Assembly: GCA_965116395.1 (NCBI GenBank) | Contig: OZ220684.1 | Location: 2,151,447 to 2,215,446 of the forward strand | DNA: 64,000 bases | Direction of reading: 5' to 3' | Origin: Caldilineaceae bacterium | GTDB taxonomy: Bacteria; Chloroflexota; Anaerolineae; Caldilineales; Caldilineaceae | Shown here: positions 4,339-63,736 of the stretch, piece after piece | Layout: each line of letters opens with the position of its first letter | Numbering within the stretch: position 1 is the first letter of the stretch | Translations under genes and position numbers: made by a program | The notes under the pieces: model-generated | Database searches by the model: none | What the model was told of the DNA's origin: nothing | The model's input: the letters and a program-made list of their open reading frames with translations, nothing else

Positions 4339-4790
4339 CGTATTTTATCGATAAAGTTTTCCCTTAATGATTTGATTGTTAATTTAGTATGACTTCGTAG
4401 GGACTGGGGAAATGGGGATACATATATTCGGCCAACTATATCTGGTGGCATGACGGAAATGTGTCTATATGTAGTGGTGAGATCGCCCGAGGAGCGTGAC
4501 TCCAATGGGGATATTTCAGAGGGGAGCGCAGGAAAGATCAGGACAGGAAAATCCGCCGAACAAATGCTCGACACAAGATACAGTGATCCTTCCAAAGTTG
4601 TGCCCAGTTGAGCATAACTCGCAGGGAATGGGGATAAAAAACTGTCGGGGTTATGAACACATCTTATCCACTTTTTTGAGACTTATCCCCGGTTTTATCC
4701 CCATTTTTGTCACTTTTCCCCATATGTGGACTATTTGCCCACAGCCGTCGTTTGCCCACAGCCCTCTTTTTCCTTCGCTGCATCCGGTGT
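4339..4790. promoter_or_regulatory. cluster of DnaA-box-like 9-mers next to an AT-rich tract (candidate oriC or DnaA-titrating/regulated region)
   Basis: AT-rich 4339-4400. Reverse-oriented boxes (TGTGGATAA-like): TGGGGATAC 4413-4421, TGGGGATAT 4506-4514, TGGGGATAA 4629-4637, TGTGGACTA 4725-4733. Forward-oriented boxes (TTATCCACA-like): TTATCCACT 4664-4672, TTATCCCCG 4683-4691, TTATCCCCA 4695-4703, TTTTCCCCA 4714-4722, TTGCCCACA 4735-4743 and 4752-4760. Confidence 0.3.
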
Positions 4791-20640: not shown

Positions 20641-21092
20641 GAAACTACGCAGCCACAACTAATCTGCGATCCTGAATGAGGCGAGCAAAGGTGCTCTCTC
20701 AACTCTCTACTTTTATATGGGCGGTCGGGCCTTCGGCCCTCCCTTGTGCAGGGGCTGCGCCCCCGCAACGCCCCCCTACAAAACCATCGCTCACCGACCA
20801 TGTGTGCGCATTCCAGCAGCGTATCTAGCCACCAGTGTTTCCTCCCCCACTTGCCGCCTCAACCCACCGACCATCGACCGCTAATCTCCGGTGTTCCCCT
20901 GACGACTGGTGTTCCACAAAAAACTGAAAACTGAAAACTAAAAACTGCAGTTCCGACCGTGTGTGCGCATTCCAGCCGTGCGGCTCCAGCAACGTGGCAG
21001 CCGCGCCAACCGAATACGCAATCAGATTGCTTGAATGGCGGCAGGGATAAGGGGCTGGTCAAGACACGTACTGTATATGGCTGAGTAGTTAC
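20641..21092 (+). mobile_element. MITE-like element, copy A (rearranged, 452 bp)
   Basis: Ends GAAACTACGCAGCC / GGCTGAGTAGTTAC. Identical 8-bp flanks CTGAAAAC at 20633-20640 and 21093-21100. About 130 bp of unrelated sequence, including a heptamer tract, lies between two copies of CGACC(A/G)TGTGTGCGCATTCCAGC. Confidence 0.7.
20918..20947. repeat. heptamer tract, family 1, inside MITE copy A
   Basis: AAAAAACTGAAAACTGAAAACTAAAAACTG, period 7. Confidence 0.7.
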
Positions 21093-38706: not shown

Positions 38707-38752
38707 CAGTGGATAGTGGTTAGTGGATAGTGGTTGGTGGCTGGCGGTTGGG
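38707..38752. repeat. heptamer tract, family 2
   Basis: CAGTGGATAGTGGTTAGTGGATAGTGGTTGGTGGCTGGCGGTTGG: six to seven imperfect 7-nt units with TAG every 7 nt. Confidence 0.75.
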
Positions 38753-38758
38753 TCCAAA

Positions 38759-38776
38759 GCGCCCCGGGTGGGGCGT
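38759..38776 (-). terminator. weak terminator-like hairpin after gatB
   Basis: On the minus strand CGCCCC-ACCC-GGGGCG is followed by CUUUGG. It lies between the two heptamer tracts. Confidence 0.3.
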
Positions 38777-38777
38777 C

Positions 38778-38802
38778 ACTAAAAACTGGAAACTAAAAAC
38801 TA
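38778..38802. repeat. heptamer tract, family 1, containing the gatB stop codon
   Basis: ACTAAAAACTGGAAACTAAAAACTA. On the minus strand the gatB end reads AGT TTT TAG and runs into AGTTTCC AGTTTTT. Confidence 0.7.
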
Positions 38803-40382
38803 TCAAGCATTTCCTGCAGCCGCTGACGCGCCGCCTGCGGGTCCGCCTTGCCCTTGGTCGCGCGCATCATCTGGCCCATGAAAAAGCCGAACAGCTTCTT
38901 CTCGCCGCCGCGGTAGCGGGCCAGCTCGTCCGGGTTGCTGTCAAAGGCATCCTGCACCGCCGCGTCAATGACCGACGTATTGCTGACCATCGCCAGCCCT
39001 TCCCGTTCGACAACCGACTGCGGATCGTCTCCGCTCGTGTACATCGACTCCAGCACCTTCTTGCCGGTGTTGGCGTTGATCTCTCGCGCATCCACCATCT
39101 GCACCAGCGCGGCCAGCTGCTGCGGCTGCACCCGCGTATCCGCGATCTGCCGCAAGTCCTGGCCCTCGCCGTCGGCGTAGAGCAGGCGGAACAGTTCATC
39201 CGTGATCCAGTTGGCCATGCGCTGCGGTTTGCCGTCCTCCTGGCCGTACGCGTCCACCGCGGCTTCGAAATAGTCGGCCACCGCCTTCTCGCTGGTGATG
39301 GCGCCTGCATCCGCCGGCCGCAGATCCCACGTCTGCCGGTAGCGCTGCTCCTTCGCGTCCGGCAGCTCGGGCAACGTGCGCGCCTCCTCCTCCACCCACT
39401 GCCGGTCGACCACCAGCGGCGGCAGATCCGGCTCGGGGAAATAGCGGTAGTCCTCGCTGCTCTCCTTCGAGCGTTGCAGCACCGTGCGCTGGCGGTTCTC
39501 GTCCCAGCCCATATTCACCTGCTCGATCACGCCGCCGCTGTTCAGCACATCCGCCTGGCGCTCGGCCTCGTAGGCGATGGCGTTGCGCACCGCGCGCAGG
39601 CTGTTGAGATTCTTCACCTCCACCTTCGTGCCGAGTTCATCGCGCGCGGCCTGCTCCGGCGTGCGCACGCTGATATTGGGCTCGCAGCGCAGCGCGCCCT
39701 CCTCCATGTTGCCGCTGTTGACGCCCAGATAGCGCAGGATCGAGCGCAGTTTTGTCAGGAACGCGTAGGCCTCGTCCGCGCTGGCAATGTCGGCCTCGGT
39801 GACAATCTCCATCAGCGGCATACCGGCTCGGTTCAGGTCCACTAGCGTATGCAGCCCTGCATGCGTGTTCTTGCCCGTATCCTCTTCCAGATGGGCGCGG
39901 TGGACGCGGATGCGTTTGACGCCGCCGTCGGGCAGCTCGATCTCCACCCAGCCGTTGCGGCACAGCGGCAGCTCGTATTGCGAGATCTGATAGCCCTTTG
40001 GCAGGTCCGGGTAATGGTAATTCTTGCGCGCAAAGACCGCCGTCTCCGCGATCTCGCAGTTGAGCGCCAGCCCCGTGCGGATCGTTGCCTCGACCGCGGC
40101 GCGGTTGCTCACCGGCAGCGCGCCCGGCAGGCCCAGACAGACCGGGCAGGTGTGCGTATTGGGCGGCGCGCCCTGATAGTCTGCGCTGCAGCGGCAGAAC
40201 ATCTTCGTCTTCGTCAACAGCTGCGCGTGGACTTCCATACCCACGACGACGTTGTATTCCTGTGTCAATTGCGGCGTCCTCTCGGTGAATCCGTGTGCTT
40301 CAATTCTTCCATCAACATCTCTGCTGGGTTCCAGTCCGCCTGCATGGTCTTCACCTGGAGATGGCATGACCAGCATCGACAT
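38793..40382 (-). CDS. gatB: aspartyl/glutamyl-tRNA amidotransferase subunit B
   Basis: [22 protein letters not shown], and GatB/YqeY C-terminal domain. The ATG overlaps the upstream stop (TAATG). Confidence 0.9.
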
Positions 40383-41407
40383 TACACATCTTCAAGGGAG
40401 GCAAGCAGGACCAGGACCAGCGCCGCCGTGTCTCCCAGCAGCACCGGATTGATGAACTCAATCGTGTCGTCGCGGGTGTTGATGCGTGACATGTCGTTGC
40501 CGGAGAAACTAATAACCGGAATCTCGGCGGAGTACCTGAAAGGGACATGATCGCTACCGCTGTAACCCTCGGTGATGCTCGTATAGGACACTCCCTCTCT
40601 GCTGGCGACTACTGATACATGACTAGTCAACCATCTGTCGCCCGGTCCCCGTAGAAATGTGCCGGATCCCACTGAATCCAGGTTGATCATGATCTTGATG
40701 TCGTCCGACTCTTCTTCGGTCAACTGGTCCACGTAATGCCAACTGCCGCTCATTCCGGTTTCCTCTGAACCAAAGGCGATAATCCGCAGTGTGAACGGAA
40801 AAACCGATACCATCTGGCTCGACCAGGGCGGTTGCGCCAATCTCTCTGCCAGCGCCAGCAGCACGCCTACTCCGGAAGCGTTATCGTTGGCGCCCACTGA
40901 GTTTCGTACCGTGTCGTAGTGCGCTCCCAGGATGACCACGCCTTCACCCTGACCGGGAAGTTCAAGGATTATGTTGCGGGATCCCCTCCGGAGAGACCCT
41001 ATCCGTACTTGAAAGTCCTGCATCTCCGGGCTGTATCCGAACTCGGTAAAGCGGTCCATCAGGAGCTCTGCGGCCTTCGATTCCTCTGCCGTAGCGCTCT
41101 GCCGCCATCCCACTTCTCTCGTCAACTCGCACAGGTGACTGAAAGCGGCAATGGCAAGAGCCTTACGATCGGCGACGCTGAATCTCGCGGTCGCGGGCGG
41201 CGAACCGACATCGGCCAGTGTCTCCTGCGCTACTTCTTCGAGTTCCGCGCAGGACGGTCCCGTTGCGACGTATGGTCTTGTACTTGTAGGGCCGTGGGCG
41301 AGAAAATGAGCAATCTGGTCATCGATGGGCCTGCAGGCTACCAGCAGAATCGCTGCGAGAAGGAAAAGCCCTGCCCGGGAAAATCTCTTGAACTTCCACC
41401 CAGCCAT
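40382..41407 (-). CDS. M28-family aminopeptidase, secreted or lipoprotein
   Basis: Signal/lipobox-like LLVAC. GAHYDTV and [17 protein letters not shown] zinc-ligand motifs. Confidence 0.8.
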
Positions 41408-41469
41408 CGCACCCTGCCTTATTGGAGTTTTCCAGCGCTGGAGAGCCTTGCCTTAATACCTTCTATATG

Positions 41470-41755
41470 GTAACTACTCAGCCGCAACTGATACGCGACC
41501 CTGAATGAGGCGAGCAAAGGTGTTCATTCTCTCCTCATGATTGTCATATGGGCGGTCGGCCGCAAGCGGCCTCCCTTGTGCAGGGGCTGCGCCCCCGCAA
41601 CGCCCCCCTACAAAACCATCCCTCACCGACCGTGTGCATTCTTCGCAACCTGTCGGCTGGCGAGCATGGCGGCGGCTGTATACCAGTTGCGTCACCAAGA
41701 GCCTGAATGGTTCCAGGGATGACTGGCTGGTCAACTGCTGTGGCTTAGTAGTTAC
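41470..41755 (+). mobile_element. MITE-like element, copy B (286 bp, subfamily II)
   Basis: GTAACTACTCAGCC...GGCTTAGTAGTTAC termini and the conserved GC-rich core at 41550-41607. No matching flanking duplication was seen. Confidence 0.75.
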
Positions 41756-41986
41756 GAATTCCGAATGAACGAACACCTTATCCATCTGGTAAAATTGAGC
41801 CTCTTACCAGGAAACCAGCAAAGATAGGTGTCCGATGATGAGTGCCATTGGGGGCAAGCACAGATATTATTATAGGTGACCGTTCCCCTTTTGCACGCCA
41901 TCATAGCATAGGGCCAATTCCGGAACAAAAGAAAACCGTATTCACCCCGTTTCCACTGCAGGGTGACCGCGACTTCCGGCCCTTTA

Positions 41987-44898: not shown

Positions 44899-45190
44899 GT
44901 AACTACTAAGCCATCTACAGTGTCTGTCTTGACCAGCCCCTTATCTCTGCCGCCATTCAGGCAATCTGATTGCGTATTCGGTTGGCGGCAGCCAGGTTGC
45001 TGGAGCGGCACTGCTGGAATGCGCACACAAGGTCGGTGAGCGATGGTTTTGTAGGGGGCGTTGCGGGGGCGCAGCCCCTGCACAAGGGAGGGCCGAAGGC
45101 CCGACCGCCCATAATACAAACATGAGGAGTGAGAGAAAACTCTTGCTGACCTCGTTCAGAGTTGCGAATCAGTTGCGGCTTAGTAGTTAC
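44899..45190 (-). mobile_element. MITE-like element, copy C (292 bp, subfamily I, inverted)
   Basis: Perfect 14-bp TIR GTAACTACTAAGCC / GGCTTAGTAGTTAC. Flanks GTTTTTAG and GTTCTTAG match 7/8. Confidence 0.8.
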
Positions 45191-47678: not shown

Positions 47679-48035
47679 GAGACCCCTCTTTTCGGGGCTG
47701 GGCTGAGGAACCTGCAGTTCACTGCCCTGTCCGGCTGTGTGCAGTTTTCAGGGAACCGCGTCAACGAAATGGCAACACTTCTCCTTTTGCCCTGTATAGG
47801 CTCGAGGGTGTCTCTGCAGATATGCGTAAAGTTTCTGCCACTGATGGGCGGCAATCCTTATGGTAGACATTCTACTATTGTCGCTAATGTGACAGAGCAA
47901 TACAAGTGTCAACGAGACCTGGTAGTCAGTTTTTGGTGACCCTGCACTTGAATAGCGGCCAGAGACGGCGCGGGTCGTCAGGCACTGTTCGCTGGCCTCA
48001 ACCGATCCAATTGTCCACGACGGTGGTCCAGCCAG

Positions 48036-48094
48036 GGCGGGGCGTTGCGGGGGCGCAGCCCCTGCACAAGGGAGGGCCGAAGGCCCGACCGCCC
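48036..48094 (-). repeat. isolated copy of the MITE GC-rich core (no arms, no TIRs)
   Basis: The reverse complement reads TGGGCGGTCGGGCCTTCGGCCCTCCCTTGTGCAGGGGCTGCGCCCCCGCAACGCCCC, identical in layout to the cores of copies A and C. Confidence 0.7.
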
Positions 48095-48099
48095 AAACT

Positions 48100-48123
48100 G
48101 CAGTGGTCAGTGGTTAGTGGCGA
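48100..48123. repeat. heptamer tract, family 2
   Basis: CAGTGGTCAGTGGTTAGTGGCGAG, immediately after the orphan core. Confidence 0.6.
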
Positions 48124-48162
48124 GGGGAGAGGGCCGCGAATCGAGTGTGGCAGTGCAGTTCA

Positions 48163-48196
48163 CCAAAAACTGAAAACTGACTACTAAAAACTGCCG
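48163..48196. repeat. heptamer tract, family 1, ending 2 nt from the permease stop
   Basis: CCAAAAACTGAAAACTGACTACTAAAAACTGCCG. Confidence 0.65.
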
Positions 48197-52737: not shown

Positions 52738-53244
52738 TTACATTGGCTCCTGATCCTCGGCCAGAGAGGCTGCATAGTCAAAACGTAACTACTCAGCCGC
52801 AACTGATTCGCCAACCTGTACGAGGCGAGCAAAGGTGTTCTTTCTCCCCTCATTGTTGTATTTTGGGCGGTCGGCCGCAAGCGGCCTCCCTTGTGCAGGG
52901 GCTGCGCCCCCGCAACGCCCCCCTACAAAACCATGCCTAACCGACCGTGTGCATTCTTCGCAACGTGTCGGCTGGCGTGCATGGCGGCCGCTGTACACCA
53001 GTTGCGTCACCAAGAGACTGAATGGTTCCAGGGATGACTGGCCGGTCAACTACTGTGGCTTAGTAGTTACGTCAAAACAGGCAAGGATATCTTCGCGCGT
53101 GACAGAAGGATATTCCTGGAGGAGATCTTCGACGCTATCGCCGCAGGCAAGCATCCGCAGGATTAGATATACAGGGATGCGTGTTCCCTGGACACAGGGC
53201 TGTCCGTGACATACGTGGGGGTTGATGGTAATGCGATCGTTCGT
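52738..53244 (-). pseudogene. DUF433 gene disrupted by MITE copy E, with the start codon position mutated
   Basis: Minus strand reads ...NDRITINPHVCHGQPCVQGTRIPVYLILRMLACGDSVEDLLQEYPSVTREDILACFD, then the element, then YAASLAEDQEPM and stop. ACG replaces the ATG of the intact paralog. Confidence 0.7.
52785..53070 (+). mobile_element. MITE-like element, copy E (286 bp, subfamily II) with perfect 8-bp TSD
   Basis: GTAACTACTCAGCC...GGCTTAGTAGTTAC flanked by GTCAAAAC at 52777-52784 and 53071-53078. The paralogous locus has a single uninterrupted GTCAAAAC at 57023-57030. Confidence 0.85.
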
Positions 53245-63360: not shown

Positions 63361-63653
63361 GAAACTACGCAGCCACAACTGATCTGCGATCCTGAGTGAG
63401 GCGAGCAAACGTGTTCTTTCTCTCCTCATGATTGTCATATGGGCGGTCGGCCGCAAGCGGCCTCCCTTGTGCAGGGGCTGCGCCCCCGCAACGCCCCCCT
63501 ACAAAACCATCGCTCACCGACCTTGTGTGCGCATTCCAGCAGCGCCGCTCCAGCAACCTGTCTGCCGCCATCCGAATACAGAATCAGATAGCCTGAATGG
63601 CGGCAGGGAAAAGGGCTGGTCAAGACTGGCACCGTATATGGCTTAGTAGGTAC
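63361..63653 (+). mobile_element. MITE-like element, copy F (293 bp, subfamily I arms with subfamily II hairpin)
   Basis: GAAACTACGCAGCC...GGCTTAGTAGGTAC. Flanks GTTATTTC (63353-63360) and GTCATTTC (63654-63661) match 7/8. Confidence 0.8.
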
Positions 63654-63699: not shown

Positions 63700-63736
63700 A
63701 GCCACTAACCACTGACCACTATCCACTAACCACTGT
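63700..63736. repeat. heptamer tract, family 2 (complement orientation)
   Basis: CAGCCACTAACCACTGACCACTATCCACTAACCACTG, ending 7 nt from the SDR stop codon. Confidence 0.7.

Follow-up and report, generated by a model that had tools for sequence, protein, structure and literature searches.

The stretch of DNA examined here (hereafter the window) comprises 64,000 nucleotides of the genome of a Caldilineaceae bacterium (contig OZ220684.1, positions 2,151,447 to 2,215,446), and the feature under study is a GC-rich core of 57–58 nt at window positions 41550–41607, which lies within a miniature inverted-repeat transposable element (MITE) at positions 41470–41755. This copy of the element is 286 bp long, is read on the plus strand and is bounded by inverted repeats at 41470–41485 and 41740–41755. 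The host genome is a single contig of 5.62 Mb with a GC content of 58.5%; in the following, G000 denotes the genome that holds the window, C1 its contig, and other designations of the form Gnnn related genome records. A conserved core at 41550–41607, with several copies in the window, had been proposed from the sequence of the window (the original prediction). This was borne out, with the 24-mer TCCCTTGTGCAGGGGCTGCGCCCC of the core occurring six times in the window compared with none in shuffled sequences. Genome-wide, 319 copies of the core were recovered by fuzzy matching and 328 by a profile search.

The core and the elements that carry it

As written on the plus strand, the core has the layout GGGCGGTC-[hairpin 1]-TCCCTTGTGCAGGGGCTGCGCCCCCGCAACGCCCC, its letters at 41550–41607 being GGGCGGTC / GGCCGCAAGCGGCC / TCCC / TTGTGCAGGGGCTGCGCCCCCGCAA / CGCCCC. 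On the G-rich minus strand the order is GGGGCG, TT, hairpin A, CAAGGGA, hairpin 1, GA and CCGCCC. Hairpin A, described earlier as a second hairpin, occupies 41579–41599 on the minus strand and consists of 9 bp and a 3-nt loop, the loop-closing pair of which covaries between C-G and G-C. Hairpin 1, at 41558–41571 on the same strand, is present here as allele V2 (5 bp and a 4-nt loop), and two of its pairs covary among the alleles V1, V2 and V3. A right flank of ~30 nt, CCTACAAAACCATCCCTCACCGACCGTGTG, at 41608–41637 on the plus strand, is conserved along with the core across species.

The three alleles of hairpin 1, each of them perfectly paired, were counted genome-wide: V1 (GGGCC-TTC-GGCCC) is found in 161–165 copies, V2 (GGCCG-CAAG-CGGCC) in 96, and V3 (GGGCG-CAAG-CGCCC), which is intermediate between the other two, in 32–34. 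Within the window, the cores at 41550, 52865 and 63441 have the V2 sequence and those at 20719, 45054(-) and 48038(-) the TTC-loop form. These counts established that both of the compensatory pair swaps proposed for hairpin 1 are real. The form that had been written as GGGCC-TTCG-GGCCC (14 nt) also exists, but its length and loop required correction: it has 13 nt, being one G shorter than was written, and folds either into a 5-bp stem capped by a triloop or into a 4-bp stem capped by CTTCG, and therefore does not present a canonical cUUCGg tetraloop. Common intermediates with uncompensated changes had been named in advance as the observation that would speak against the covariation. When looked for genome-wide, unpaired intermediates were seen only as singletons or doubletons, and the one frequent intermediate, V3, is fully paired; the remaining hairpin 1 variants are likewise singletons or doubletons, including two V2/V3 hybrids with one broken pair.

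Six cores are present in the window, each within a member of the same element family. Besides the copy at 41470–41755(+), these are a composite copy at 20641–21092(+), with its core at 20719–20775 (V1), in which part of the right arm is duplicated and 7-nt repeats form an internal module; a copy at 44899–45190(-), with its core at 45054–45110 (V1); a copy at 47914–48163(-), with its core at 48038–48094 (V1), one end degenerate and 7-nt repeats making up its left arm; a copy at 52785–53071(+), with its core at 52865–52922 (V2); and a copy at 63361–63653(+), with its core at 63441–63498 (V2) and an 8-bp duplication, GTCATTTC. The core at 48038–48094 had been called an orphan core, a description that no longer holds, as it belongs to a diverged member of the MITE family with a degenerate end. 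The window is collinear with G012 at 91–95% identity. Among the six copies, the orthologous sites of two (20641–21092 and 44899–45190) are empty in G012, one copy falls in a deleted segment, two are shared (that at 63361–63653 being one of them), and the sixth lies in a stretch that was unaligned at the length threshold used. The site of the copy at 41470–41755 is empty in four sister species (G007, G002, G010 and G005). A side observation concerns the surroundings of this copy: window positions 40283–41886 correspond to C1:1449058-1449202 of G012, the closest relative, where the M28 peptidase gene beside the MITE is missing and 145 nt stand in place of 1.6 kb.

The carrier was characterized from an alignment of 162 well-preserved copies. 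The element is ~290 bp long and has terminal inverted repeats, GTAACTACTCAGCCGC and GYGGCTTAGTAGTTAC (both ends were present in 105 copies), that begin with 5'-GTAA; it is flanked by 8-bp target duplications, e.g., gattcgac, cgagcagg and GTCATTTC, which were perfect (8/8) in 32 of the 92 copies scored, and it has no coding capacity. Its size, its inverted ends and the duplications of 8 bp therefore identify the element as a MITE. The IS66 family has GTAA ends combined with 8-bp duplications as its hallmark, and the carrier displayed every feature of an IS66-type (ISBst12-type) MITE that was tried; filled and empty orthologous sites between species further showed that it is mobile. In composite copies, breakpoints lie at the base of the core in 53 cases; others fall in the loop of hairpin A, where CTGCAGTTCC is joined to the core's 3' half in 14 cases.

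Insertion sequence (IS) elements that share these ends were found in the sister species. IS66/ISBst12-type elements occur in 14 of 25 of them, each with a single open reading frame of 487–526 aa that contains DDE_Tnp_IS66 (PF03050; E to 1e-47), and are mostly ~1.5–1.6 kb (~1.55 kb) in size among those examined, one being 2.3 kb. Eight loci were examined (L141–L148, in G083, G088, G085, G084, G087, G007, G090 and G056); at seven the IS ends are GTAACTACT[A/C]AGCC, the same as the MITE ends, and at the eighth they are a 2-mismatch variant. Up to 19 identical copies of the IS are found per genome, and the element is apparently active in the sister species. The core was absent from every IS examined, and only the 14–16 nt ends of the IS match the MITE, apart from one doubtful 20-nt match to the interior (E = 0.15). 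The parent IS thus has the same repeats without the core, which bears out the earlier view that terminal inverted repeats alone do not explain the conserved structure. In the genome that holds the window we found no IS66 transposase, no Y1/RAYT transposase (Y1 HUH, PF01797; five candidates were scored, and control genomes were positive) and no convincing case of a long element bounded by MITE-type ends. Two side observations on abundance were made: the IS is absent from G000 and G012, though both have ~300 MITEs bearing its ends, and G008 has 13 IS copies but only ~5 cores.

The core family occurs in a single genus only. Matches were obtained in 12 of 12 and 3 of 3 sister genomes drawn, and 57 genomes that represent 25 other genera of the family gave none. 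A scan of the sequence collection with an exact 35-mer of the core yielded matches only in Caldilineaceae bacterium records, one of them a bin with an accession from a sponge metagenome study. Copy number ranges from ~5 (G008) through at least 150 (G087) to ~320 in the genome studied here. The hosts may be sponge-associated, as is one related metagenome-assembled genome. No description of this MITE or core family was found in the literature searched. No match to the window was obtained in Rfam 15 at gathering score, and a search with the element at E up to 10 returned only chance-level eukaryotic and archaeal models (E 0.5 to 3). A simple scan of both strands between 41350 and 41900 revealed nothing inside the element that resembles a promoter or a terminator; the combination of a GC hairpin and a T run that marks a Rho-independent terminator was not found on either strand of this interval, and neither hairpin 1 nor hairpin A is followed by a T run on its 3' side.

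Folding, conservation and exchange among copies

The two strands of the core differ in predicted stability. When the core was folded as RNA, the G-rich strand reached -37.7 kcal/mol (z -2.0 to -2.8) compared with ~-31 (z -1.0) for the written strand, and when the whole element was folded as DNA, using one copy and both strands, the values were -57.7 (z -2.5) for the G-rich strand and -52.4 (z -1.9) for the other. The better-folding strand is hence the complement of the one on which the structure was originally described. On the G-rich strand, hairpin A forms a continuous 9-bp helix, TGCGGGGGC-GCA-GCCCCTGCA, in which one G.T pair corresponds to an A.C mismatch on the written strand. A G-quadruplex on the G-rich strand was also considered and was ruled out by allele V2, which has no fourth run of G.

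Covariation was evaluated in an alignment of 40 distinct core variants from eleven related genome records, with pairs counted on a structure that we specified. Paired cells amounted to 95.6%, compared with 90.5 +/- 0.6 in shuffles, and double-change cells numbered 27, compared with 8.4 +/- 2.3, neither value being reached in any of 500 shuffles; when the 3' partners were slid by one to three columns as a control, 38–51% of cells were paired. The pairs that change on both sides are three, two in hairpin 1 (A5 columns 45/55 and 47/53) and one in hairpin A, namely the loop-closing pair (A5 columns 22/27), which is C-G in 23 rows and G-C in 10. At column 17/32 of hairpin A, 21 rows have a G.U pair and 18 a G-C pair. 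The loops vary freely across ~15 species of the genus: GCA, GGA, GAA, AAT, TGT, AGT, AATT and ATG were seen in hairpin A, and GAA, AAA, GAATA, CTTG, GTCA and GCA in hairpin 1, while the unpaired junctions GTT, CAAGGGA and GA are nearly invariant. The GGGCG/CGCCC helix showed no covariation in this alignment. That GGGCG...CGCCC closes a three-way arrangement is accordingly no more than possible: the two segments are complementary but never covary.

Conservation of the core stands apart from that of its surroundings. Among the 162 aligned copies, mean pairwise identity was 65% in the arms and 99.1% in the core outside hairpin 1, the nearest-neighbour values being 88% (median) and 99.5%, respectively; in sliding 30-nt windows, an identical partner was found for 88–94% of copies in the core (92% of cores) compared with 12–35% in the arms. 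Private substitutions change by a sharp ~30-fold step at the core edges, the arms having the higher level. The core is also better conserved than the terminal repeats of the MITE, and matches in other species mostly cover query positions 850–938 only, which correspond to the core and its right flank. The few copies with a decayed core that exist have decayed arms as well.

The two copies shared with G012 illustrate how rapidly the arms change and how the hairpins are exchanged. In the copy at 63361–63653, the core and 30 nt to its right are identical in the two species, whereas the arms differ by 15–20% and the unique flanks by 0–4%; the arm differences occur in patches that resemble other copies. 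In the copy at 47914–48163, the two species have the same junctions but differ in hairpin 1 (V1 versus V2) and in hairpin A (GGGGC-TGC-GCCCC versus GGGGGG-AAT-CCCCCC); the arms are 50–70% alike between flanks at 91–95%. Across the genome, hairpin alleles are independent of the arm subfamilies. Allele swaps at an orthologous copy, together with this lack of linkage, indicated that whole segments or hairpin alleles are exchanged between copies. The copies are therefore not independent, and the covariation amounts to about three compensating events rather than hundreds. Templated correction inside a DNA palindrome could produce such compensating changes without selection. The claim that covariation reveals selection on a folded nucleic acid hence stands as far as the compensating changes at three pairs are concerned, and is weakened by the small number of independent events, for which correction without selection could suffice.

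Orientation with respect to replication

The direction of the core follows the strand composition of the chromosome. In 281 of 309 copies (p ~1e-53), its written, C-rich strand coincides with the C-rich strand of the genome, so that the G-rich, better-folding strand of the core lies on the G-rich genome strand. The majority direction was held by 232 of 243 copies (95.5%) where the absolute local skew is at least 0.05, by 41 of 55 (74.5%) where it is 0.02–0.05, and by 11 of 21 (52%) where it is below 0.02, and core direction flips within every local skew reversal. Genes are co-oriented with the skew in 48.6% of cases and tRNA genes show no skew bias (28/51); the flanking genes of the cores are arranged as same/same in 44 cases, opposite/opposite in 63, convergent in 39 and divergent in 36, i.e., with roughly equal frequency. 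Since orientation tracks the skew and genes and tRNAs do not, the polarity is tied to replication and not to transcription. Similar patterns were observed in related genomes: in G087, 140 of 149 cores fall in two blocks plus one inverted island, with which the sampled 20-kb skew agrees, island included, and G056 exhibits a two-block strand pattern (55 of 64 cores). The cores are evenly spread along the chromosome, with a mean of 11.4 per 200 kb and a variance of 9.3. GC skew and core direction were further seen to flip jointly in blocks of 0.2–0.4 Mb between 3.4 and 4.8 Mb of C1, and also at 3.87–3.99 Mb of G087; these blocks resemble inversions inside a single replication arm, or joins made at repeats during assembly, and core direction could be used to mark them.

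To which replicated strand this polarity corresponds was judged from the position of the origin. The cumulative skew has its minimum (circular) at ~4.8 Mb, where DnaA boxes are most densely clustered (4,789,761) and near which the sole parB lies (4.754 Mb); its maximum is at ~2.0–2.2 Mb, where the window sits. The agreement of skew minimum, DnaA boxes and parB at 4.75–4.8 Mb supports the usual rule, by which the leading strand is the G-rich one, which hence serves as the template of lagging-strand synthesis. A cluster of DnaA boxes at 4339–4790 of the window had been put forward as a candidate origin; it sits at the skew maximum, and the denser cluster, the skew minimum and parB are all near 4.8 Mb. 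It is more likely that the window lies at the terminus rather than at the origin. A dif site was not found in the genome by similarity to those of E. coli and B. subtilis. As a side observation on the assembly, position 1 of C1 falls inside a groEL-like gene, i.e., the contig start has not been placed at dnaA or at an origin.

The orientation of the parent IS was scored against the local cores in G087 and G056, where 9 copies had the same and 12 the opposite direction; under a bias of 0.9, the chance of observing at most 12 of 21 is ~1e-4. The IS being unoriented and the MITE oriented, the bias belongs to the contents of the MITE and not to the transposase. A survey of IS orientation found IS66 elements to be biased in few or no chromosomes (PMC3971601), which makes a bias of 90–95% in an IS66-type MITE unusual. 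The bias is also related to the apparent age of the copies. Wrong-way copies numbered 31 of 162 among those with conserved arms and 0 of 99 among those with diverged left arms (hypergeometric estimate, p ~1e-7). When copies were divided by their target duplications, 16 were wrong-way and 52 right-way among those with 6–8 matching bases, compared with 1 and 23 among those with a decayed duplication (Fisher p = 0.037). The concentration of wrong-way copies in the young-looking class indicated that such copies are short-lived.

Other polar sequences were encountered in the same genome. Tracts of 7-nt repeats (ACCACTG, AAAAACT, ACCCCTG, ACTATCC and others), exemplified in the window at 38707–38802, 48100–48196 and 63700–63736, are ~90–95% aligned with replication, e.g., 55:3 for ACCACTG and 25:1 for AAAAACT; at one orthologous site, G000 and G012 have tracts of unequal length. 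Words derived from the core showed no greater skew outside the MITEs than base composition predicts. The 8-mer CACGGAGG (with the overlapping forms CCACGGAG and ACGGAGG) is found on the G-rich strand in 93% of 271 occurrences outside the MITEs, a value that far exceeds the prediction from composition; it lies outside the core and is a candidate polar motif of the genus, of the type of the FtsK-orienting polar sequences (KOPS) or Chi.

Interpretation and comparison with known systems

The reading that we favor, tentatively and with slightly less than an even chance of being right, is that the core is a conserved cargo in the interior of a genus-limited MITE family that is moved in trans by an IS66-family (ISBst12-type) transposase, and that it acts as a strand-asymmetric single-stranded DNA structure at the replication fork. 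The core would fold as a single DNA strand exposed on the lagging-strand template, forming a 9-bp and a 5-bp hairpin, both GC-rich, linked by unpaired stretches that do not vary. Insertion would probably be near random in direction, and wrong-facing copies would then be lost quickly, either by selection or by excision or deletion that depends on orientation. Because every mobile, recombining lineage of the MITE carries it, the core would persist, and this persistence could reflect selection at the level of the element, aided by frequent ectopic gene conversion that swaps whole hairpin alleles. Its molecular partner could be a fork or repair protein of the host or the transposase. A bolder proposal, which we consider possible but doubtful, is that the core represents a new class of replication-polar cis elements coded by structure, which was picked up by a DDE-type MITE and in which direction relative to the fork decides whether a copy survives; its spread would be due to a cut-and-paste transposon and not to a single-strand (HUH) transposase. 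The same two-hairpin module might be what makes the adjacent DNA turn over so fast by recombination.

Several observations weigh against these proposals. The folding of the DNA in the cell is predicted from sequence, and any binding partner is a candidate. The stabler fold sits on the most exposed template, which is the opposite of what a simple model of harmful hairpins on the lagging template would lead one to expect. The choice of strand depends mainly on the single G.T (versus A.C) position, and when this position is excluded the cells that pair on one strand only are evenly divided, 14 versus 13. Copy age was judged solely by arm divergence and decay of the target duplication. In addition, 56 scorable 7-nt tracts situated more than 400 nt from any piece of the MITE have the same polarity (49:7), and given such tracts the orientation bias may not be the core's alone. 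Finally, the assignment of origin and terminus is not certain: besides the DnaA-box-like cluster in the window near the skew maximum, dnaA at 1.96 Mb (1.963) is also near this maximum and far from dnaN at 1.26 Mb (1.263), both genes being distant from either DnaA-box cluster, and the directions of the two rRNA operons and of the S10 operon are not all consistent. Taken with gene-strand bias and the tRNA genes, these markers are conflicting or uninformative on the polarity between origin and terminus.

The pattern of exchange among copies speaks for an account in which the core has no function, with ectopic gene conversion (perhaps GC-biased) maintaining uniformity, template switching in the palindrome maintaining the stems, and the alleles representing old, shuffled variants. 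The lack of linkage between hairpin alleles and arm clusters, the exchange of both hairpins as whole alleles at 47914–48163 where arms at 50–70% adjoin flanks at 91–95%, the patchy arm differences of the shared copy at 63361–63653 that resemble other copies, and the count of only about three independent compensating events would all be expected from it. We nonetheless consider it unlikely, since it accounts neither for the sharp 30-fold step in private substitutions at the core edges nor for the invariant unpaired junction bases, leaves unexplained why the arms stayed unhomogenised and why the loops are free and the stems perfect across ~15 species, and does not foresee an orientation bias that rises with copy age. 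Compensated hairpins with free loops are at the same time the classic signature of RNA, and the G.U pair of hairpin A suits RNA as well as DNA; the core might thus work as a structured small RNA, or as an element for processing or stability in transcripts that start in the MITE or run through it. The orientation data make this improbable, as the direction of the core is independent of flanking genes (44/63/39/36) and follows replication at 95%, with tRNA genes at 28/51, and no credible Rfam family even at E = 10 and no promoter- or terminator-like site in the element by simple scan were found. The original prediction had offered RNA within transcripts and a DNA cruciform as the two options: the former is disfavored on these grounds and a symmetric cruciform fails on the strand bias, so that folding of one DNA strand at the fork fits best.

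Two further explanations place the source of the polarity elsewhere. The core might have been adopted by the host as a polar chromosome signal, similar to KOPS/FtsK or Chi sites or serving as a site of priming or restart on the lagging template, with host selection fixing its direction. Such a role would agree with the G-rich strand being on the leading strand at 90–95%, the even spread of copies (mean 11.4 per 200 kb, variance 9.3), the junction CAAGGGAGG, which never varies, and the fully correct (100%) orientation of the older copies. A host could not depend on the core, however, when copy number within the genus runs from ~5 to >300 and no match was found in the 25 other genera searched; most copies are recent insertions that sister species lack, core words outside the MITEs are not skewed beyond composition, and the word that is polar there, CACGGAGG (0.93), lies outside the core. 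We regard such a signal as quite unlikely, and very unlikely is our estimate for the remaining alternative, in which the core is required in cis for mobilization of the short element in trans, for example as a cruciform or bend that joins ends 290 bp apart, and the bias arises at the insertion step. That the core is conserved above the terminal repeats, that cut-and-paste lineages would be continuously screened for mobility and that the rare copies with decayed cores have decayed arms too are points in favor of a need in cis. The autonomous IS nevertheless moves without a core and without orientation bias (9:12), a symmetric cruciform is blind to direction, and the bias grows after insertion.

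MITEs are usually viewed as passive deletion products of IS elements, the direction of which is irrelevant. The present family departs from that view in that a foreign structured module is kept above the element's own ends, 90–95% of copies are aligned with replication (here and in G087, with a two-block pattern in G056), wrong-way copies vanish with age, and the sequence near the module turns over far faster than its unique neighbours. If the reading of the core as a strand-asymmetric structure at the fork is true, replication-coupled, strand-specific biology, which has so far been associated with HUH elements, repetitive extragenic palindromic (REP) sequences and attC sites, would extend to a DDE transposon, and a workable sequence would be available for studying how replication filters mobile DNA. 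Core direction also maps both replication arms, and the inversions within them, in these uncultured genomes.

In comparison with known systems, the carrier resembles IS66-family (ISBst12 group) MITEs in its GTAA ends, 8-bp duplications, lack of coding sequence and ends identical to those of an IS in sister species; it differs in that its interior is unlike the IS beyond the ends, the module is better kept than the ends, and the MITE is oriented with replication while the IS is not. In its proposed action the core comes closest to the hairpins of REP sequences and REPINs, to the ends of IS608 and to attC sites, each a structure of single-stranded DNA with polarity relative to replication. REP sequences and REPINs, which depend on RAYT (Y1 HUH) proteins, are likewise found as hundreds of intergenic copies with GC-rich palindromes thought to act as single-stranded DNA hairpins, have GTAG or GGAG directly 5' of the structure on the G-rich strand, as here, and show reported compensating changes in REPIN hairpins (PMC3116915). 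Unlike REPINs, the carrier has inverted ends and 8-bp duplications, and this genome has no Y1 transposase. IS200/IS605 elements (IS608) and their small derivatives have subterminal DNA hairpins recognised on one strand and an orientation bias tied to the lagging-strand template (cited in PMC3971601), but lack inverted ends and target duplication and need a Y1 transposase. Both the REP/REPIN and the IS200/IS605 readings were rejected, given the absence of Y1/RAYT from the genome and a carrier with inverted ends and duplications.

Integron attC sites are imperfect palindromes of 57–140 nt in which structure is conserved over sequence, one strand is folded and use depends on the direction of replication; in the core, by contrast, the unpaired bases are strictly conserved, and copies occur singly inside MITEs and not in cassette arrays, with a DDE-type carrier. 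The structured enterobacterial and neisserial repeats (ERIC, BOX and Correia elements) share with the family described here a small size, a modular mosaic make-up and conserved stem-loops in their interior. These elements act mainly in transcripts, whereas core direction is independent of genes, and we know of no report of strong replication polarity as a feature of them. Motifs of the KOPS, Chi and architecture imparting sequence (AIMS) type are marked by a strong strand skew that follows replication and by recognition through FtsK or RecBCD/AddAB; of these two marks the core displays the skew, core words outside the MITEs are not unusually skewed, and copy number varies from ~5 to >300 between sister species. 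What makes this family of interest is the combination of a structured foreign module, a replication polarity that is absent from the parent IS, and very fast turnover of the adjacent sequence.

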